A stretch of 9,541 nucleotides of DNA from a virus (lineage: Duplodnaviria; Heunggongvirae; Uroviricota; Caudoviricetes). Below, one piece after another: positions 243-8,539 of the stretch (positions are counted from its first letter, which is position 1; every line of letters starts with the position of its first letter). The stretch lies in IMG/VR virus record IMGVR_UViG_2706794687_000013; one strand, 5' to 3'. The notes under the pieces are model-generated. The model made no database searches, was not told where the DNA came from, and saw only the letters and a list, made by a program, of their open reading frames with translations. Position numbers and translations under genes: made by a program.

Positions 243-1325
243 TCATTTTCTCTGGCTGATCTTTACCGGATAACCATCCCGAAGATCAATTAAGTGCTCC
301 GGTTCAGAAGCAAACCATGCATAAGATCCCCACGCCAATTCTGGTATTGCCTTTTTAAAAGGCAGAGCACTTCTGTCCATAAATGCCGTAAGGAATGCAA
401 GATTTTTCTCGCTGAACCCAGCGTCAATAGCCAAATGAGTGAGAGTAACTTTTCGTTCCCTGTTTATAGGCCCATCTGTCGCAACTACTTCAGTGAAAAC
501 TACAAGCATGTCCGAACCCGTTCGGTCCTCTCCCAAATCAATCAAAATAATATCTGGAAGTGCTTTTGAGGCATCAATATTCAGCCCCAATGCTTTTGCC
601 AATACATCATCCTGAGCAACAACTTTATTCCCGGATTCAGACAACCAGAGCACAGTTGGATTCTTAAGAAAATTAGGAGCAAAAACTTCGATGACGGCCT
701 TAGCTATTGTACTTGACGGGCCCGGAGCTAAAGTTCTCTTCTCTCCATTTGGGAAAGTGACGACTACGGCATCAGCAGCAATCACTGCCCCTGATTTCAA
801 TAAACGCAACCTAGCAAGAGCGGCTTTGTTCAAATGATTTTCTTGCCAGGAACTTATTGCACTCAGCAGCGAATCTCCTTCAAGCCCGGCATCAAAGAGT
901 GCTGCAAAAGAGCGATTCAAACTGTAACGAGGACGAGAGGATGTGGTGGGTATACCTTTACGCTCAACAATTGCATTGCAAGGTATTAGGCCATTTTTTA
1001 TAGTTTCATCACGTATTGGCTCACGCGTATTTTCCGCATACCATGCATCAGCAGGCCTTATCTTTTGTTTAGAGAAAGTCATCTTTACCCAGCTTTCTCT
1101 GGACGCATCATCAGTAAGAGCAGCCTGCGAATCTCCCATACTTACAACCTGGCTGGGCCTTATCCATCGCCCCAGCCCCTCAACCGCACCAGCATAAAAC
1201 ATGACAAAAATTGTTTTTGCAGCTATTTCCCGAATTAAATATCCACGATTCTCAGTCCCTTCAGGGAAAATTAATTGTAATCTTTCCCGGATAACATTCA
1301 ATGGGGGAACAACAGGCAGATTCAT
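243..1325 (-). CDS. putative Type II restriction endonuclease, partner of the adjacent methyltransferase (possibly BsuBI/PstI-like; family recalled from memory, unverified)
   Basis: 360-aa ORF. Its ATG (1325-1323) overlaps the MTase stop (ATGA at 1325-1322), implying translational coupling. GGAG lies 10 nt upstream. GC is low (about 40%), like the MTase. No MTase or specificity-subunit motifs; no nuclease motif could be confirmed by eye. Confidence 0.55.
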   Translation of the reverse strand: MNLPVVPPLNVIRERLQLIFPEGTENRGYLIREIAAKTIFVMFYAGAVEGLGRWIRPSQVVSMGDSQAALTDDASRESWVKMTFSKQKIRPADAWYAENTREPIRDETIKNGLIPCNAIVERKGIPTTSSRPRYSLNRSFAALFDAGLEGDSLLSAISSWQENHLNKAALARLRLLKSGAVIAADAVVVTFPNGEKRTLAPGPSSTIAKAVIEVFAPNFLKNPTVLWLSESGNKVVAQDDVLAKALGLNIDASKALPDIILIDLGEDRTGSDMLVVFTEVVATDGPINRERKVTLTHLAIDAGFSEKNLAFLTAFMDRSALPFKKAIPELAWGSYAWFASEPEHLIDLRDGYPVKISQRK

Positions 1326-3094
1326 GCAATCATCACTCCATAGAAACCAGCGATAGTTCTCTCAATAATCCGTCTGTGGACGCCAGCATCAATTAACGAT
1401 TGAATCTCCATCACCTGCTCCAGAGAAGGCAACGGGATTGAATTCAATTCATAGGCCGAAACAGCAACACTTCCGCTTATACACCTGAACGCCCGATCGA
1501 CAACATGCGAATTAAGTAGCATATCAATAACATCAGGGCGAACCGCAGAGAACAATCCGTTTGAATATACAATATTAATATGGTTTTCAACTACTACGCC
1601 ACCAGTTTCATCTATAAATCCCTGAGGTAAAATTGCCGCTAAAATCCTTCTGTCCTGTTCCTTCGATGTTGTCCGCTGAACAAGCACACATTCAGATTTT
1701 GTCACAAGGAAACCCTGTTGTGGGGTTATATCGATATAGGGAACATGATTTTTTCTGTCTGCACTAAAACGAAAACCAGCTGAAGTTATTGATTCCGCCC
1801 AGACTAATGGGTAGCTATTTTTTCCTTTCGTCGTACGCAACTGCGACTTAAATCGATTCCAGACTAACTGACCTGTAGAGACTGAGTATCCCAGATCAGC
1901 TAAACGCGTAGACATCTGTTTTAATACATTAAGAAAACAGGCATCATCTTTAACGCGTGGCAAAAGCCACGTTGCTCCACCTTTTTCTATATCAACATTA
2001 CCTATTTTCTCAATTTTTGCTTTGTTCAACCCCTTAGGGACAAGTGAGGATACCTGGGCCCGAACTTTATGTTCTCCCGCCTTGAATGCTGTCAACATTG
2101 TTTCCTGGAGAACATCGTCAAAGACCCCATCCCTGTCAGTGACGAAATCAAGGGCATACGGAGTAGTTTTTTCGGTCAAAAGNNNNNNNNNNNNNNNNNN
2201 NNNNNNNNNNNNNNNNNNNNNNNNNNNNNNNNNNNNNNNNNNNNNNNNNNNNNNNNNNNNNNNNNNNNNNNNNNNNNNNNNNNNNNNNNNNNNNNNNNNN
2301 NNNNNNNNNNNNNNNNNNNNNNNNNNNNNNNNNNNNNNNNNNNNNNNNNNNNNNNNNNNNNNNNNNNNNNNNNNNNNNNNNNNNNNNNNNNNNNNNNNNN
2401 NNNNNNNNNNNNNNNNNNNNNNNNNNNNNNNNNNNNNNNNNNNNNNNNNNNNNNNNNNNNNNAATGGATCGATCTCTATCCCCTTTAAACGACGACTGAT
2501 TCTCCTCAACATCCATTCAGGGGAAGACCCCTTGTCTTTTTTTAACATTCGAATGGCTACTGGTGCCAAAAATGCACCGCCACCACACGCAGGATCAATA
2601 ACCGATGCATGAGAAAAATCAACACCAGACTTTTCAGCCAGGTCCAAGAGACGCGCTACCAAAGGTGGGGGGGTATAGTAAGCCCCCAATTCCGAACGGT
2701 AAGCGGATGGCAGCATTACCGTATAAATTGACCCAATCAGATATCCAGCGTCCTCCGCCGGAAATTGAGCAATAAGCTCACCTGTTCGTTCAGCGAGCTC
2801 GCGTGCATCACATGGAATGTCTTCTATGTAAACAGTGTGCGGTACTGCCCTCATTTTAATGCTGCTTTTTTGCTTTTTTGCAAGGGTATCCCAATATGCA
2901 GCTACGATGCTGAAGCAGTATGAGCGGGCATGCATCAACCTTGACTGCCCGGTTTTGTAATTGCCCGCATAACCTTTGGCCATGGCTTTACAAGTTTGAT
3001 ATCTTTCCAGATTAGAAAACTCATTATCTGTAAAAAAATCAAAATGTTGCACATTCATAATGTAAAATCCTAATGTATCAAACATGCGGGCCAT
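1322..3094 (-). CDS. N6-adenine DNA methyltransferase (N6_Mtase/HsdM-like catalytic domain with a TaqI-like C-terminal target-recognition region); Type II R-M methylase
   Basis: 590-aa ORF. 'GAYYTPPPLVARLLDL' and 'DPACGGGAFL' match the AdoMet-binding motifs (X and I) of gamma-class amino-MTases. The C-terminal part ('LADLGYSVSTGQLVWNRFKSQLR...') resembles TaqI-like recognition domains. Motif IV (NPPY/F) presumably lies in the masked stretch 2183-2462; frame continuity across the mask is assumed from length. Alternative start ATG 3058 (AGGA 9 nt upstream). Confidence 0.8.
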   Translation of the reverse strand: MARMFDTLGFYIMNVQHFDFFTDNEFSNLERYQTCKAMAKGYAGNYKTGQSRLMHARSYCFSIVAAYWDTLAKKQKSSIKMRAVPHTVYIEDIPCDARELAERTGELIAQFPAEDAGYLIGSIYTVMLPSAYRSELGAYYTPPPLVARLLDLAEKSGVDFSHASVIDPACGGGAFLAPVAIRMLKKDKGSSPEWMLRRISRRLKGIEIDPXXXXXXXXXXXXXXXXXXXXXXXXXXXXXXXXXXXXXXXXXXXXXXXXXXXXXXXXXXXXXXXXXXXXXXXXXXXXXXXXXXXXXXXXXXXXXXLLTEKTTPYALDFVTDRDGVFDDVLQETMLTAFKAGEHKVRAQVSSLVPKGLNKAKIEKIGNVDIEKGGATWLLPRVKDDACFLNVLKQMSTRLADLGYSVSTGQLVWNRFKSQLRTTKGKNSYPLVWAESITSAGFRFSADRKNHVPYIDITPQQGFLVTKSECVLVQRTTSKEQDRRILAAILPQGFIDETGGVVVENHINIVYSNGLFSAVRPDVIDMLLNSHVVDRAFRCISGSVAVSAYELNSIPLPSLEQVMEIQSLIDAGVHRRIIERTIAGFYGVMIA

Positions 3095-3308: not shown

Positions 3309-3665
3309 TTATTCGGGGCTATATTTTGTCACCCTGCGTATCCGCGCTTTCGCATTACGCTCAATCTGGATTAGCTTTTCTATATTTTTTCGCCTTTCCC
3401 GCTCCTCCTGGCGCAAGAGCCTTACATCATCTGCCAGTCTGGTTTCTCTTTTCGCCACAGAGAGCATCCAGTCAAATGGCTCCACAACTGCACCGCAAAT
3501 TTTACAGCGGACCTGACGCTCTTTTTCGTCAACCCGGACAGAAGCGTGATGGCAATATGGTCTTTCCGATGGCTCATAAAGAAAATTAACCTGATTACGA
3601 GGGTTATCCTCTTTTACCGGAAATAAAACAATATTGCTTAACTCATCTTCTGGTTTTATTTCCAT
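3309..3665 (-). CDS. hypothetical protein with a Cys-cluster (zinc-ribbon-like) N-terminal half and a basic coiled-coil-like C-terminal half
   Basis: 118 aa from ATG 3665-3663, preceded by a strong RBS (GGAGAGGAGC immediately upstream). Pattern 'YCHHASVRVDEKERQVRCKICGAV' (C-x16-C-x2-C). C-terminus is rich in R/E/K ('RLLRQEERERRKNIEKLIQIERNAKARIRR'). The track's longer form (to 3722) lacks an RBS. Confidence 0.55.
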   Translation of the reverse strand: MEIKPEDELSNIVLFPVKEDNPRNQVNFLYEPSERPYCHHASVRVDEKERQVRCKICGAVVEPFDWMLSVAKRETRLADDVRLLRQEERERRKNIEKLIQIERNAKARIRRVTKYSPE

Positions 3666-3722
3666 GCTCCTCTCCTTTGATGCGAATGCCAGCGGTAATT
3701 GAAGCCTGATAGCTAATTTCAC

Positions 3723-4145
3723 TCACAGTACCGCCTCCTGAAAATCACCCTGATAGAAAGCCGGTACACGCTGCATAACTTCACTCTTCCGGCACTCGCG
3801 ACAGATTATGTTCTGATGTCTGTCGTAGCGGCGTATTTCTCCGTCCGGTAATGACCAGATAAGGTCCGGATCAACCACAGATGGTTTCTTCAGCTTTGCC
3901 CTCGAGAGTTTTTTGCGGGCGTTTTGCCAGTCCTTACGAGCCTGTTCAGACGGGAATAACCCGTAGCCAGAGTTGTATACATCCCCACTGGCAACCAGCT
4001 CTCTGGCGAGAACGCTTATTAAATATCTTGTCGCCCCGGTTTTAGCTTCCAGTTGTCGTAACGTCTCGCGCCCACTCTGGCGTACGAGTTCAACAACCTG
4101 CCCCTTAATTTTTTCCCGCTCTTCCTGTGTAAATACTTTTGCCAT
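3723..4145 (-). CDS. hypothetical prophage protein (possible winged-helix N-terminal region, CxxC near C-terminus)
   Basis: 140 aa from ATG 4145-4143 (the track's 4160 start is TTG). Tightly packed in the leftward operon, 15 bp after the upstream gene's stop, with a G-rich stretch before the ATG. 'VVELVRQSGRETLRQLEAKTGATRYLISVLARELVASGDV' looks HTH/wHTH-like. No family recognised. Confidence 0.5.
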   Translation of the reverse strand: MAKVFTQEEREKIKGQVVELVRQSGRETLRQLEAKTGATRYLISVLARELVASGDVYNSGYGLFPSEQARKDWQNARKKLSRAKLKKPSVVDPDLIWSLPDGEIRRYDRHQNIICRECRKSEVMQRVPAFYQGDFQEAVL

Positions 4146-4160
4146 AAGCGCCCCCGGCAA

Positions 4161-4886
4161 TCACTTTTCCGACACAATACGACCGGAGGAATCGACAATC
4201 TGTCGAACAATATCCCGGTGCTTGTTCAGCTCCCGCAACGCGGCGCAGACACGCTCCCACTTCTGGACATGACTTTTCGCCCGACGCAGTTCGCGGTTTG
4301 CCATATGCAGCGATGGTAAAACCAGGTCATCCGCTTGCGTTTCGGTGAACGATGGCAACGACTGCACAATGTCCGCCACAGTTTCTGTTTTAATTTCTTC
4401 CTGTGTTGCAGCTTCCTGTACCGGTAACGCAACACCTGCTGGCTGAGGAAAGACTTTACCATCCGTTTCCGCTATGGATGCGGCTTTCGGCTCTGCCGGT
4501 AAATCAGCGCCCGGTATGCAGTACCGAAATTTACCGCCCTGATTCACGCGAATCAGACGCCCTTTGCTGATTGCCATGGCCAGCGATGAATTCGCCCGGC
4601 GGGAGGTAATCCCGAACATCAGTGCCAGCTCATCCGCCGTTTGTGGGCCATGTTGTTCAATCGCCTCAGTCAGCATTTGCGCTGTCACTTTCGGTACCGG
4701 TGACACTGGTTCACTTTCACCAGCCTGAATCAGCCACCACATCGAACCCTTGTTATCCGCTTCACCACGGCGCTTCAGTTTCCACAGTTCGTTGACCGCA
4801 TCTTCACGGCTGATTCCAAGGCGGGACGCCACCACATGTGAAGAGGCTCTTTTCAGTGCTTTCAGTGCGTCAAATACAGTTTCCAT
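4161..4886 (-). CDS. hypothetical prophage protein with two putative winged-helix-like repeats (possibly a DUF-type phage protein; unverified)
   Basis: 241 aa from ATG 4886-4884, with GGAGG 8 nt upstream; the track's 4904 start is TTG. Two similar segments ('[40 protein letters not shown]' and '[43 protein letters not shown]'). Starts 21 bp after the DnaC-like stop. Confidence 0.55.
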
Positions 4887-4907
4887 TAAAACATCCTCCA
4901 ACAAAAA

Positions 4908-5420
4908 TTACTTCACAACTCCCGGAAAGCTGACATTTGAACGCCAGCTATCCCAGTTAAACGTCACCCACCGACAACCGTTCATGGTCATGCGGTCCAT
5001 AATCCTCTCACCAAGAAGCGTGCTCATTGCGGCATGATTCAGGTTTGTTAACATCCCGACACTGCACAGTGATGCTGTCCGGCGATCAATTATCTGGTGC
5101 AATACCACCTGCTCGTTTTTCGTCTCCCGCTGAATGCCTATTTCATCCAGGACCAGCAAATCAACCCCGCAAAGCTCCTGTAAAAATTTTTCACCGGATT
5201 TGCCGTTGTCGTAGCTGTCATGCAACACGCTCATGACATCAGACTCGGTGACGATAATCACGCTGCGCCCCTTCGCCATCAGCCGGTTACCCATCGCCGC
5301 TGCAAGGTGATTTTTCCCGGTGCCGGTTTTACCGCTGAACACAAAATTCGTGCACCCGGTCATCAGTTCGTCAGCTATGGATTTGGCCTGGCTCAGCGCG
5401 TATTTTTGCCCGTCGTTCTG
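4908..5420 (-). CDS. DnaC-like AAA+ helicase loader (lambda P-equivalent / YdaV-like replication protein); 5' end lies in masked region
   Basis: Visible 170 aa carry Walker A 'SGKTGTGKNHLAAAMG' and Walker B 'LLVLDEIG', typical of DnaC/IstB-like loaders. The true start (estimated about 75 codons further 5') is hidden in the N-run 5421-5683. The track's N-terminal 'MFSERRRFLGRTG...' (TTG at 5747) is probably not real. Confidence 0.8.
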   Translation of the reverse strand, partial: QNDGQKYALSQAKSIADELMTGCTNFVFSGKTGTGKNHLAAAMGNRLMAKGRSVIIVTESDVMSVLHDSYDNGKSGEKFLQELCGVDLLVLDEIGIQRETKNEQVVLHQIIDRRTASLCSVGMLTNLNHAAMSTLLGERIMDRMTMNGCRWVTFNWDSWRSNVSFPGVVK

Positions 5421-5685
5421 NNNNNNNNNNNNNNNNNNNNNNNNNNNNNNNNNNNNNNNNNNNNNNNNNNNNNNNNNNNNNNNNNNNNNNNNNNNNNNNN
5501 NNNNNNNNNNNNNNNNNNNNNNNNNNNNNNNNNNNNNNNNNNNNNNNNNNNNNNNNNNNNNNNNNNNNNNNNNNNNNNNNNNNNNNNNNNNNNNNNNNNN
5601 NNNNNNNNNNNNNNNNNNNNNNNNNNNNNNNNNNNNNNNNNNNNNNNNNNNNNNNNNNNNNNNNNNNNNNNNNNNNNNNNNNNGG

Positions 5686-6666
5686 GAGCAACCAGGGGTT
5701 TTCAAAATTCCGGTCCGGCCCAAAAAACGTCGTCGCTCGCTGAACAAATTCCGTTCCCGCTTTCCCGGTCGCCGCCAGGTATCTCGCGTAACGCCTCACA
5801 CCATCCAGCATGGTCTCTGGTGGCACCCCCTCGCGCAATCTGGCCTTCCAGGCACTGAATGCGGATTTCTTCGGGTTTGCCCCGGCACGCAACGGGTATT
5901 CCCGCCAGACCTGTTCGAACACATCCGGATAATCCACTCGTCCCACAGGCTGCCCGGTGTTTTCCGGGGCTACCCGATCGGCTTCCCGCTGAATGGCGGA
6001 ATCGGCTTCAGGCTGCTGCAGTTGGAGTGATTGCTCCGGCCTTGCGGTCATCACCTGCTGCACAGCGCCCGAATCGGCTTTCAGCGCATACGCTGAATCG
6101 GCTTCCGGTGTCGAGCCTGCTGGCTGACCAGGATTGACGGTCTGAACATCCCCTGCCTGGTTCGTGGCGTTTTTTACGCCATGGACCATAGTGTTTTGAT
6201 CTTCTTTATCTGTATCTTTATCTGTATCTGTCGTGACTCGTCGTGACATGTGCGTGACATTTCGTGACGCGCCGTGACAATCGCCATTTTGTTCCCGCTT
6301 TCTTTCCCTCTCTCGCTGCGCCCTCTTGCGCTCTGCAGGAGATTTTGCGGTTTGCGAAATATTGCCGTTGTCCTCTTTAAGCACCTGGCGTTTTTCCCAT
6401 CCAGTGATTAAATCACCATCAAGTACCCGCCCCTGCATCGTCTGCAAAATTGAATCAATTACCTCTTCTGTCACGTCGAGCGCACTTGCCAAATCTTCTG
6501 TCGTGACATCAATGTGACCTCGCGTGACATTTCGTGACGCGCTCACCAGGAGGTGGATATACACTGCCATCACTGTTGCAATTGGCTGCCCTGACACCCT
6601 GGCAATTGTTCGCCACTTAGGGTCATTTGGCATGTCATGCCATAATCTGAGCCAGGCGTTAGCCAT
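5686..6666 (-). CDS. phage replication initiator (lambda O-like / YdaU-like replisome organizer); 3' end lies in masked region
   Basis: ATG 6666-6664 with AAGAGG upstream (track start 6672 is GTG). C-terminal half has the 'FEQVWREYPLRAGANPKKSAFSAWKARL...' motif recalled from phage replication-initiation proteins. The gene contains the iteron arrays and an acidic/basic linker. The stop is inside the N-run; the track's tail 5371-5420 ('ERRAKIRAEPGQIHS') is an artefact of reading through the mask. Confidence 0.65.
6231..6278. repeat. iteron-like array: five CGTGAC copies at 10-11-bp spacing, adjacent to an AT-rich tract and a 12-bp tandem repeat (putative ori core)
   Basis: CGTGAC at 6232, 6242, 6253, 6263 and 6273. 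Immediately preceded by 6191-6230 (about 30% GC), which contains TTTATCTGTATC x2 (6205-6228). Lies inside the O-like gene. Confidence 0.55.
6470..6542. repeat. second iteron-like array (CGTGAC x3 plus TGTGAC and one inverted GTCACG) including a 21-bp perfect copy of part of array 1
   Basis: GTCACG 6470-6475; CGTGAC at 6502, 6523, 6533; TGTGAC at 6513. GCGTGACATTTCGTGACGCGC is identical at 6522-6542 and 6252-6272. Confidence 0.55.
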
Positions 6667-6737
6667 ACTCACCTCTTCTGATACCGAATCTTTTTACTCA
6701 CGAGTTGCCGGGAGCGATTCGATATGGCTATTGTCAG

Positions 6738-7163
6738 TCAATGTACTGCCACAGCATTTCCTGCCGGGCCACCACGGTTCATCTGATTGAAACCGGCGAT
6801 TGCCACTGCGACAAAATCATCAGCGTCTCTCACCAGTCGTTCATGCGTCTCCACCAGTTCCCGAAAATAAGCTGAACTGTGGCTGCGCATTCGAGCCACC
6901 AGCGGAGGTGGCATTGCCCTTTCGATCGCAGGTAACAACGCCTGAATTTTTTCAACAGCGTCAGGGGTGTCTTTATCCAGCCAACGGAAAATCTTTTGGG
7001 TGTTGAGATAAAGCGTGTTGTGCTTGCTGTCGTTATGCAGAACCGGAAACGTCATTCCCAGTTCGAAATAAACCCTGGTTATTTCAGCTGCCGGAACTTT
7101 TTCACCGTCCGGATGCGCCCAGGCTTTCATCGCCATGCGGATGTGTTCATGCTTGATTTTCAT
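6738..7163 (-). CDS. ydaT: YdaT-like prophage regulatory protein (possible CII-like role in the switch)
   Basis: 141-aa ORF beginning 'MKIKHEH...'. Its ATG (7163-7161) overlaps the upstream gene's stop (ATGA). Size and position (second gene after the Cro-like gene, before the O-like and DnaC-like genes) match Rac ydaT as recalled; sequence identity not verifiable here. Confidence 0.6.
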   Translation of the reverse strand: MKIKHEHIRMAMKAWAHPDGEKVPAAEITRVYFELGMTFPVLHNDSKHNTLYLNTQKIFRWLDKDTPDAVEKIQALLPAIERAMPPPLVARMRSHSSAYFRELVETHERLVRDADDFVAVAIAGFNQMNRGGPAGNAVAVH

Positions 7164-7423
7164 GAATCAACCCCCGCCGATGGTTGTGTGTTAGCCTGAA
7201 ACTCAGCAGGCAAGCCGTCAGTTGGGTTGGGGTAGGTTTTACTGTCAATCTCATGTGGGGTCACCACCCATCCCGTTGCTTCACACCAACGTAATATTTT
7301 TTCTCCTGTAAGTTTTGCACGCCCCGTTATAACGTGGCTGACCATCCCTTGGGATGCGCCAACAATCTCAGCAAATGAACTCTGGGTTATATGAAAATGA
7401 TGCAAATATTCTCCAAGATTCAT
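7160..7423 (-). CDS. ydaS: YdaS-like Cro-type HTH DNA-binding protein (first gene of the leftward early operon)
   Basis: 87 aa from ATG 7423-7421 (the track's 7450 start is TTG and would run into the operator region). HTH-like 'ITQSSFAEIVGASQGMVSHVITGRAKLTGEKILRW'. Divergent from the repressor gene. Confidence 0.6.
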   Translation of the reverse strand: MNLGEYLHHFHITQSSFAEIVGASQGMVSHVITGRAKLTGEKILRWCEATGWVVTPHEIDSKTYPNPTDGLPAEFQANTQPSAGVDS

Positions 7424-7534
7424 AATCCGCCCTATGTGATGTGTTACCAATGCATAATTAATAGCACTGTTATTTTTAAAAGTAAATAGTGATACTATTT
7501 CAAAGTGATTAGCAATCTTATTAGAATTGGATGT
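7424..7534. promoter_or_regulatory. divergent promoter/operator region with two 15-bp palindromic operator-like sites (O1 7460-7474 AATAGCACTGTTATT; O2 7485-7499 AATAGTGATACTATT)
   Basis: 111-bp AT-rich gap between divergent starts. O2 is a perfect 6-3-6 palindrome. Candidate rightward promoter TTCAAA(7499-7504)-17-TAGAAT(7522-7527), ending 7 nt before the repressor ATG. Candidate leftward promoter overlapping O1/O2 on the minus strand. Confidence 0.5.
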
Positions 7535-8035
7535 ATGAAAAGAAAATCATTGTCAGACACCGACCTCAACGCCGCCAGAAGACTGAAAGAAATCTGGATG
7601 GCAAAGAAATCTCAGTTGGGATTGACTCAGGAACGTGCGGCGGAAATTATGGGGTTTTCAACACAAGGGGCGGTAAGTCACTACCTAAATGGTCAAACCC
7701 CACTAAACCTTGAGGCTGTTCTAAAGTTTGCTGGCTTACTGAAAGTTCCCCCTGAGTCAATCAGGCCAGACATGGTAGATTTGCTGCAAATTGCAAGGAT
7801 GTATTGTCGAGAACCACAGCAAGATAACATAGTCGCATTACCAGCAGACACAGAACAAACAGAGGATGAACTACCGTTTGCCGTAGAGCCGATGGAACGA
7901 GATTTAATCCATACGTTCAGAGCTTTTCCGAAAGAAGATCAAGAACACATGCTTCAGGAGATGAAAGATAAAAAAGAATCAATGGATCGTACGGTTGCGC
8001 GGTGGTTAGCTGCACAAAAAGGCCGTCGCGCCTAA
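7535..8035 (+). CDS. paaR: XRE-family HTH transcriptional repressor (PaaR/RacR-like prophage repressor)
   Basis: 166 aa from ATG 7535 (the track's 7505 start is GTG). Canonical HTH_XRE 'LGLTQERAAEIMGFSTQGAVSHYLNGQTPLNLEAVLKFAGLLKV'. Divergent from the Cro-like gene; followed 19 bp later by the antitoxin-toxin pair. Symbol inferred from operon architecture, not sequence identity. Confidence 0.75.
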   Translation: MKRKSLSDTDLNAARRLKEIWMAKKSQLGLTQERAAEIMGFSTQGAVSHYLNGQTPLNLEAVLKFAGLLKVPPESIRPDMVDLLQIARMYCREPQQDNIVALPADTEQTEDELPFAVEPMERDLIHTFRAFPKEDQEHMLQEMKDKKESMDRTVARWLAAQKGRRA

Positions 8036-8054
8036 ATCAGAGGAGATATGTAAA

Positions 8055-8249
8055 ATGAGTACAGTCCTTTCCCCAATGGTTTCAGAATTTGAGACAGTTG
8101 AGCAAGAAAATAGTTACAACGAATGGCTGCGGGCCAAAGTAGCAGCAAGCCTCGCGGATCCCCGCCCGGCGATTCCGCATGATGAGGTAATGGCGGAAAT
8201 GGAACAAATTATTGCCCAAATTGCTGCTGCAACTCACAGAGGTGAATAA
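8055..8249 (+). CDS. paaA: small antitoxin of a ParE-type toxin-antitoxin module (PaaA-like)
   Basis: 64 aa; AGGAG 9 nt upstream of ATG 8055. Stop TAA 8247-8249 overlaps the toxin ATG (TAATG). Acidic, low-complexity C-terminus. Size and position match the recalled PaaA2 antitoxin; symbol assigned by context. Confidence 0.65.
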   Translation: MSTVLSPMVSEFETVEQENSYNEWLRAKVAASLADPRPAIPHDEVMAEMEQIIAQIAAATHRGE

Positions 8250-8539
8250 TGTTACCCGTTTTATGGCTACCATCTGCTCGTGATGATTTGCGCCAGATCG
8301 TAGCCTACATAGCTAAAGAAAATCCCGCGGCAGCACGCAGAATGAAAATTCGAATTGAAACATCCGTTTTGCCGCTCACAGAGCATCCTTACCTGTATCC
8401 TCCAAGCGAGCGAGTTCTTGGTCTTCGTGAAATTGTAACTCATCCTAACTACATCATCCTTTACCGAGTAACAGCATCAAGCATAGAAGTAGTAAATATT
8501 GTGCATTCTCGAAGACAGTATCCAGGCAAAAACAGTTAA
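8249..8539 (+). CDS. parE: ParE/RelE-superfamily toxin (ParE-like)
   Basis: 96 aa. 'LPVLWLPSARDDLRQIVAYIAKENPAAARR...GLREIVTHPNYIILYRVTASSIEVVNIVHSRRQYP' fits the ParE/RelE pattern. Translationally coupled to the upstream antitoxin; GAGG upstream. Confidence 0.8.
   Translation: MLPVLWLPSARDDLRQIVAYIAKENPAAARRMKIRIETSVLPLTEHPYLYPPSERVLGLREIVTHPNYIILYRVTASSIEVVNIVHSRRQYPGKNS

Follow-up and report, generated by a model that had tools for sequence, protein, structure and literature searches.

A probable replication origin with phased iterons and an AT-rich tract inside the replisome organizer gene of a Rac-type lambdoid prophage

The 9,541-nucleotide (nt) stretch analyzed here (record IMGVR_UViG_2706794687_000013, Caudoviricetes; hereafter the window) carries on its minus strand a gene for a replication initiator. 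Two arrays of a short direct repeat, GTCACG in gene orientation and CGTGAC on the plus strand, lie within this gene, array A in the part encoding the N-terminal domain and array B in the part encoding a linker, the latter next to an AT-rich tract (Table 1). Comparison of this gene with its homologues leads us to propose, with good confidence, that a Rac-type lambdoid prophage has its vegetative origin of replication at this site, inside its own initiator gene. The element appears to be of the iteron-plus-unwinding-element type, with its closest anatomical counterpart in oriL of phage SPP1; it is widespread, apparently undescribed and, to a specialist, unsurprising.

Table 1. Position of the initiator gene, its repeat elements and the adjoining genes in the window
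Feature	Position	Strand	Remarks
Initiator ('phage replisome organizer') gene	5596..6666 (approx.)	-	ATG at 6664-6666, GAGGTG Shine-Dalgarno sequence upstream
Array A, four iterons (three GTCACG and one GTCACA)	6502..6538	-	N-terminal-domain coding region
Single inverted iteron core	6470..6475	+	27 bp past array A, reading along the gene
Array B, five GTCACG iterons (CGTGAC on + strand)	6232..6278	-	linker-coding part of the initiator gene
AT-/purine-rich (GATACA/GATAAA)n tract, presumed DNA unwinding element	6188..6231	-	adjoins array B on its transcriptionally downstream side
Palindrome with 13-bp stem (TGGTTCGTGGCGT / ACGCCATGGACCA)	6158..6188	.	adjoins AT tract; terminator-like on + (antisense) strand
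DnaC/IstB-like ATPase gene, presumed helicase loader	4908..5590	-	downstream; PF01695, E=1e-9; start hidden in masked stretch
YdaT-like gene	6738-7163	-	upstream
Cro-like helix-turn-helix (HTH) gene	7160-7450	-	upstream
AT-rich divergent promoter region	7451-7504		

The five iterons of array B start at positions 6232, 6242, 6253, 6263 and 6273 of the plus strand, that is, at a spacing of 10/11/10/10 base pairs (bp), and occupy nt 389–435 of the gene; Tandem Repeats Finder describes the same region as a period-10 array of 4.9 copies (6230–6279). In the whole window, CGTGAC is encountered nine times compared to 2.9 expected, a number reached in none of 200 shuffles, and all nine copies fall inside 6232–6538. 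As a measure of phasing, we counted the adjacent GTCACG pairs lying 9–12 nt apart within the initiator gene. The observed value of 5 was reached neither in 5000 dinucleotide shuffles (maximum 2) nor in 5000 synonymous-codon shuffles (maximum 4), and the gene contains eight GTCACG hexamers, while synonymous shuffling left 1.6 on average and at most 5. The claim of an earlier note on this DNA, five CGTGAC copies in helical phase at this site, is fully borne out by this spacing, which was unmatched in all shuffles. Translated from the minus strand, the hexamers of array B read C-H-G, S-R, V-T, S-R and V-T; they occupy all three frames, indicating a DNA repeat rather than a peptide repeat.

The tract beside array B (nt 436–479 of the gene) encodes the peptide DTDKDTDKEDQ. 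The minus-strand frame across it reads ...RRVTTDTDKDTDKEDQ..., the low-complexity linker that had been pointed out before, and Tandem Repeats Finder reports a period-12 repeat of TCTTTATCTGTA with 2.2 copies and 100% matches at 6203–6229. The GC content of 0.29 (6191–6231) and the two exact copies of TTTATCTGTATC, which occupy precisely 6205–6228, confirm the tract of about 30% GC with a 12-bp tandem repeat described in the earlier note. No 40-mer of the gene is less stable than 6188–6227 (GC 0.25), whose nearest-neighbour free energy (dG) is -43.2 compared to a gene median of -58.4 kcal/mol; in the window, it belongs to the five non-overlapping 40-mers with the lowest stability.

Array A and the inverted iteron core at 6470 are missing from the list of the earlier note. 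On the plus strand, the iterons of array A start at 6502, 6513 (TGTGAC), 6523 and 6533, corresponding to a spacing of 10/10/11 bp in gene orientation and to nt 129–165 of the gene. They encode residues ~43–56, a loop that has low confidence in the structure model of the N-terminal domain (low predicted local distance difference test score, pLDDT) and that accepts insertions carrying extra iterons. The peptides encoded by the two arrays resemble each other (ASRNVT...VTT), and at the DNA level A and B can be aligned as a 39-nt duplication with 72% identity. The inverted core is also present in homologues from Aeromonas and Pseudomonas phages. The origin probably includes this second iteron array, which lies 260 bp upstream in the same gene.

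Variation in the number of iterons was observed in both arrays. In some variants from E. coli and E. albertii (L007, P0007, P0022, P0084 and P0114), array A is longer by two iterons, which add seven residues (TCHGVS[LR]) to the N-domain loop by insertion, and array B has additional copies too. The insertion in array A indicates that iteron copy number shifts by in-frame expansion inside a folded domain.

A homologue scan restricted to one genome per species yielded 80 loci with 35–99% identity, 75 of which contained enough sequence past the gene start to be analyzed. We scored the presence of at least three copies of some 5-mer at a spacing of 9–12 nt and used 605 flanking segments as controls. 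In the linker region (nt 300–560), at least three phased copies were found in 64 of the 75 loci compared to 4 of the 605 controls, and at least four copies in 34 loci compared to none of the controls. The array A region (nt 100–210) contained at least three phased copies in 48 loci and in two controls. Together with the switching of the motif between lineages and the SPP1 oriL anatomy described below, this comparison supports the putative origin proposed in the earlier note.

The repeated motif itself differs between groups of homologues. The GTCACG class is found in Escherichia, Shigella, Serratia, Aeromonas, Pseudomonas, Bordetella and others; GAACGC is the motif of many beta-proteobacteria and sphingomonads, GCAACG that of Cupriavidus, Burkholderia and Ralstonia phage Firinga, GTGACG that of Paraburkholderia, and GTAACG that of Pantoea and Enterobacter. 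When both regions were analyzed independently, the same top motif was obtained in 40 of the 75 loci, whereas 1000 permutations pairing regions across loci gave 13 such matches on average and never more than 24. The logo of the GTCACG class shows that the 6-bp core alone is conserved, with flanks below 1 bit and all array copies in direct orientation. Within this class, neighbouring cores were 10 bp apart in 92 cases and 11 bp apart in 26. With an average spacing of ~10.25 bp, cores recur once per helical turn, so that proteins bound to them would sit on one face of the DNA and be able to touch each other.

Selection on the DNA sequence of the iterons was apparent within the class. The Aeromonas and Pseudomonas phage homologues, with an N-domain identity of 73–74%, carry GTCAC(G) at the same positions in both arrays, while their spacers, and also the amino acids encoded there, differ. 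Among 20 homologues with 60–78% identity, the entropy at third codon positions was 0.36 bit in the hexamers of array A compared to 1.38 bit elsewhere (Mann-Whitney p=3e-5).

Similar observations were made for the tract. Over 67 loci, the 40 nt following array B average a GC content of 0.35, whereas the value is 0.57 for the whole gene and 0.53 ahead of the array; the coding strand of these 40 nt has a purine share of 74%. In 50 of the 67 loci, the lowest-GC 40-mer within the first 900 nt of the gene begins 0–60 nt past the last iteron. The repeat units of the tract are nearly always GATAAA, GATACA or GAGAAG, and its codon choice is strongly shifted towards AT: GAT makes up 93% of the Asp codons (49% in the N-domain), AAA 77% of the Lys codons (42%) and ACA 73% of the Thr codons (15%). 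This bias holds even at loci with a gene GC content of at least 58%, supporting the idea that the acidic, Lys-rich linker is dictated by the DNA. The suggestion that the linker is shaped by DNA constraint is in line with the frozen synonymous sites of the hexamers and with the AT-biased codons of the tract, which persist in GC-rich hosts. Tract length varies among E. coli copies in steps of 6/12 nt. All copies recovered by a scan of viral contigs were 100% identical to the E. coli type, so that the scan revealed copy-number polymorphism but no diversity.

Taken together, the sequence properties generally expected of an iteron origin are encountered at this locus, namely at least three phased direct repeats at a conserved position, with a motif that co-varies with the initiator, and an adjoining unwinding-type element under selection at the DNA level.

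The 3' end of the initiator gene lies inside a masked stretch (N at 5421–5683), and its stop was placed near 5596 based on the 97% identical gene of phage Tritos, which encodes 356 residues. NCBI names the protein 'phage replisome organizer', with 5786 members in one 90%-identity cluster alone. It belongs to PHROG 3729, 'replication initiation protein', with weaker PHROG matches to 'replisome organizer' and 'DnaD-like helicase loader'. A Pfam scan at E<=10 listed only HTH_Crp_2, PhyR_sigma2 and Phage_rep_org_N, each below its cut-off, and gave no match to DUF1376. There was no match to Phage_rep_O either, and the protein is not a homologue of lambda O; the designation 'O-like' used in the earlier note therefore holds as an analogy, the protein being a member of the replisome organizer family with a DnaD-like N-domain. 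The structure models predict a helical N-domain (residues 1–90) with winged-helix topology, followed by a basic helix (110–127), a disordered stretch (128–245) and a helical C-domain. Residues 46–52 of the N-domain appear as a low-confidence loop that coincides exactly with the peptide specified by array A.

Several observations concern the C-terminal end of the protein. Its last 24 residues (Tritos 333–356, ...SEPD.EIPPGFRG) match the C-terminal tail of DnaT (NCBIfam NF002770, E=0.0015), and the IPPGFRG tail is common to YdaU, the protein at this position in the Rac prophage of E. coli K-12, and to variants with other C-domains. Some variants contain a full DnaT-like domain binding single-stranded DNA (PF17948; PDB 6aep, E=1.7e-7 with the family profile). 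A host replication protein may use the tail as a docking peptide.

Exchange of protein modules leaves the iterons associated with the N-domain. The same N-domain, together with GTCACG arrays, is paired with the C-domain of the window, with a DnaT-like C-domain (PF17948) or with a YdaU-like C-terminal part, and it adjoins genes annotated as DnaC-like, DnaB-like or 'P'. One such hybrid, P0047, combines a window-type N-domain with a YdaU-like C-terminal part (76% identity over 172 residues). Conversely, an E. coli protein (P0037, encoded at L169 1501–2610) has an unrelated N-domain ('MRDYAKVSPRFW...') fused to the C-domain of the window, and its gene carries a motif of its own, AGGGGCTT, at 11-bp spacing. 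This motif is again arranged in two arrays, one at nt 172–209 in the N-domain coding part and one at nt 444–466 just before a purine-rich tract, indicating that the two-array layout recurs independently of the N-domain family.

From these pairings we infer that the N-domain is the reader of the repeats. Leaving aside the loop encoded by the iterons, the GTCACG class is best distinguished from the GAACGC class by protein positions 100–115, at the start of the basic helix; as a specificity determinant they are only a lead, suggested by the alignment and confounded by phylogeny. That the iteron-encoded loop is the sole specificity determinant is weakened by this additional discrimination and by the insertions of 7–20 residues that the loop takes. 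A contribution of this loop to reading the iteron that it encodes is unlikely, since the loop tolerates large insertions and positions 100–115 also separate the classes.

We compared the layout of the locus to that of known origins. Phage SPP1 of Bacillus subtilis has, besides oriL, a second origin, oriR, located away from it. In oriL, gp38 binds the repeats, the AT-rich part serves as unwinding element, and oriL-dependent replication was reconstituted in vitro (PMC6316719). Read directly (L168 538–633), SPP1 gene 38 contains five AGAAACGAC-like repeats at 11-bp spacing (nt 360–410), followed by an AT-rich (AACAATGAT)n tract (nt 412–455, GC 0.20) that encodes NNNDNNENNDN. As in the window, short direct repeats are located in the organizer gene after the N-domain part and precede an AT-rich tract encoding a low-complexity linker, and their distance from the start codon almost equals that of array B and its AT tract. 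A helicase-loader gene, in the window a presumed one, follows in both cases, in SPP1 together with a helicase gene. SPP1 differs in its motifs and its host, and it has no second array of the same motif in the N-domain coding part.

The lambda origin lies inside O and consists of four iterons with a 39-bp AT-rich region to their right (PMC6022878, PMC7466680). Each iteron is an inverted repeat of 18–19 bp bound by an O dimer (PMC6022878). The protein itself is divided into an N-terminal origin-binding half and a C-terminal half that binds the helicase loader, and in related lambdoid and Shiga toxin (Stx) phages the number of iterons varies, 4 vs 6 (PMC6022878, PMC7466680). The 'lambda ori layout' ascribed to the window earlier is accurate in that the origin lies mid-gene in the initiator, with iterons upstream and an AT-rich region downstream by transcription, and the upstream context is cro/cII-like in both. 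It does not extend to the iterons, which are 6-bp direct cores every 10–11 bp in contrast to the 18–19-bp inverted repeats of lambda; the window moreover has a DnaC/IstB-like partner instead of lambda P, and a second array 260 bp upstream.

For the Rac prophage of E. coli K-12, an active origin, oriJ, has been reported (PMC3945230). Its genes (racR-ydaS-ydaT-ydaU-ydaV) follow the same order as those of the window, i.e., repressor, Cro-like, YdaT-like, initiator, DnaC-like and DUF977. Within K-12 ydaU (L166 3012–3125), three exact copies of TGTTCAAACA in 66 nt are found directly upstream of AATAAAGATACAGATAAAGATCTAAAA, a near-identical AT tract, and a C7/G5 hairpin also follows the repeats. YdaU shares its terminal IPPGFRG tail with the window protein but differs in its DUF1376 N-domain, which is unrelated to that of the window, and in its repeat motif; in a blastp comparison to the window's family, only its last 19 residues matched, hybrid P0047 excepted. 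In the comparison with Rac-type origins called for earlier, ydaU thus shows repeats preceding a near-identical AT tract; the sequence-level position of oriJ was not found in the reachable literature. By analogy, oriJ is likely to coincide with the repeat/AT region of ydaU.

Plasmid iteron origins such as those of R6K, RK2 and pPS10 likewise combine direct repeats, a cognate winged-helix Rep protein, an adjacent AT-rich unwinding element and Rep-iteron specificity. Their iterons are, however, typically 17–22 bp long and located outside rep, in contrast to the 6-bp cores of the window, one per turn and inside coding sequence.

These comparisons suggest a model for the action of the proposed origin. 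N-terminal DnaD-like winged-helix monomers, probably together with the adjacent basic helix, would bind the 6-bp GTCACG cores, and bound initiators would be aligned on one face of the DNA at both array B (6232–6278) and array A (6502–6538). An oligomer at array B, possibly bridging or wrapping the ~260 bp to array A, would then destabilise the (GATACA/GATAAA)n tract (6188–6231). The C-domain of the initiator and the DnaC-like protein would bring the host DnaB helicase to the opened DNA, and leftward transcription from the cro side through the origin may assist, as in lambda.

A more tentative extension, which we regard as possible though doubtful, is that the origin is bipartite by design, with array A placed in insertion-tolerant loop codons of the DNA-binding domain and array B ~260 bp downstream beside the tract. 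As the two-array layout is also found with the unrelated N-domain and its motif AGGGGCTT, the arrangement could represent a general 'specificity cassette': binding sites interspersed among the codons of their cognate domain could stay inseparable from this domain when mosaic recombination swaps C-terminal or helicase modules. In this reading, the initiator oligomer may in addition bridge or wrap the two arrays and thereby put the (GATAAA)n tract under torsional stress.

A number of observations weigh against the assignment of an origin or limit its reach. The literature on oriJ, on replisome-organizer iterons and on the 'Eru' replication units of Stx phages gave no description of the origin of this module. 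The structure models are modest (mean pLDDT 52 and 67), and a Foldseek search with them against PDB gave no significant match. Homology to G38P of SPP1 was not demonstrable, the Phage_rep_org_N match (E=0.12) being below its cut-off and the alignment of the N-domain profile to G38P by hhalign having a probability of 0.2%. A scan of 5900–6750 revealed no convincing DnaA boxes or sites for IHF; this segment contains only one GATC. The loci are phylogenetically related, and the counts given above do not represent independent events. Gene conversion between arrays A and B could account for part of their co-variation but cannot explain invariant cores next to variable spacers. Finally, three loci from Ventosimonas and Entomomonas metagenome-assembled genomes (L030, L033 and L046) keep a strong AT tract without array A. 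Their N-domain identity is 61–65%, at most two degenerate AACG-type motifs lie upstream of the (GATAAA)n tract, and L046 contains eight tandem (GATAAA) units. The degenerate iterons of these loci and the absence of array A from about one third of the homologues indicate that array A is dispensable in some lineages and probably auxiliary, and its role is probably that of an enhancer, copy-control or autoregulatory site rather than an essential one.

Other functions of the repeats have to be considered. Initiators of iteron replicons commonly autoregulate, and the arrays might be no more than operators, for the initiator or for another phage regulator, with the true origin elsewhere; their location inside a transcribed gene, in one case only ~130 nt from the start codon, would suit such a role. 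An operator, however, needs no neighbouring tract selected at the DNA level for AT-richness, and no other iteron-plus-AT-rich candidate was seen, all nine motif copies lying in this gene. Since the layout moreover equals that of the proven SPP1 oriL (PMC6316719), we consider a purely autoregulatory function improbable; autoregulation could coexist with origin function. Alternatively, the repeats could be a by-product of coding, a low-complexity or duplicated peptide kept by slippage and gene conversion without any function of the DNA. The similar peptides of arrays A and B, with their 72% identical 39-nt duplication, and the variation of the AT tract by whole repeat units would be expected under this explanation. 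It is nevertheless contradicted by the occurrence of the hexamer in three frames, by synonymous shuffles, which never reproduce the array, by core synonymous sites that are frozen while spacer amino acids change, by tract codons that are AT-biased against host usage, and by the recurrence of the two-array layout with another motif and an unrelated N-domain; we give it hardly any credence.

A site recognized by a different protein, in partition or packaging, is brought to mind by two clusters of four to five short direct repeats one helical turn apart, parC of plasmid R1 having five 11-bp repeats in each of its two clusters. The adjacent genes, however, include none for partition or a terminase, the motif class goes with the N-domain of the replication protein in different genomic contexts, and among PLSDB plasmids the protein is rarely part of a plasmid replicon or partition module, making a centromere-like or packaging site extremely improbable. 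The (GATAAA)n tract, finally, could mainly be a recombination joint for the exchange of N- and C-modules rather than an unwinding element, as the same tract joins unrelated N-domains (that of the window's family, DUF1376 of YdaU and the 'MRDYAKV' type) to different C-domains, including hybrids such as P0047. Such exchange could as easily be the consequence as the cause of a shared functional tract, the AT codon bias persists in distant GC-rich hosts with other exchange partners, and the SPP1 counterpart is described as a DNA unwinding element (PMC6316719). Although a tract serving mainly as a joint appears very improbable to us, the two properties are compatible and not exclusive.

The palindrome adjoining the AT tract has a T-rich run after its stem on the plus strand and scores as terminator-like; apart from it, a promoter and terminator scan remained at background level, and an Rfam scan of the window gave no match. 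The hairpin goes with the C-terminal module, as it is kept with a better stem in L169, where the same C-domain is fused to the unrelated N-domain. Neither its sequence nor its position is conserved in other genera, and whether the hairpin is part of the proposed origin is uncertain.

The initiator gene and its neighbours form a Rac-type module for replication and immunity, and a divergent HTH repressor lies beyond the upstream genes. The least stable 40-mer of the window (7455–7494) falls into the divergent promoter region, and leftward transcription from the cro side would pass through the proposed origin. In the repressor position, opposite the Cro-like and YdaT-like genes, the plus strand (7505–8539) encodes a HTH regulator (7505–8035), a PaaA2-type antitoxin (8055–8249) and a ParE toxin (8249–8539), a three-gene module resembling paaR2-paaA2-parE2. 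Downstream of the DnaC-like gene, the minus strand (3309–4904) encodes DUF1627 (4161–4904), DUF977 (3723–4160) and a small zinc-ribbon protein (3309–3722), and the position of DUF977 matches that of YdaW, which follows ydaV in K-12 Rac. Further downstream on the minus strand (243–3094), a PstI/BsuBI-type restriction endonuclease (PF06616, PF17728) and an N6-adenine methyltransferase, the latter partly masked (N at 2183–2462), form a restriction-modification pair representing prophage cargo downstream of the replication genes.

In PLSDB, the initiator gene is rare and confined to large plasmids, mis-filed chromosomes and phage-sized circles, and it is not a typical plasmid replicon. The segment 6150–6560 was found in 1717 of 5426 complete E. 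coli genomes, and coding sequences are the only features listed there.

Overall, the replication module resides in this same set of E. coli genomes (1717 of 5426) and in prophages of many proteobacterial genera. Knowledge of the position of the origin and of its specificity classes would aid the annotation of prophage origins and help to predict replication incompatibility or cross-activation of co-resident prophages. It would also help to read data on induction and 'onion-skin' amplification, and it would be of use in the design of origin-based plasmids or of constructs for phage-encoded resistance. The matched initiator-iteron pairs represent a natural series for analyzing how a DnaD-like winged helix reads 6-bp sites spaced by one helical turn, and the recurrent two-array design, with one array within the coding sequence of the DNA-binding domain, is the most interesting loose end.

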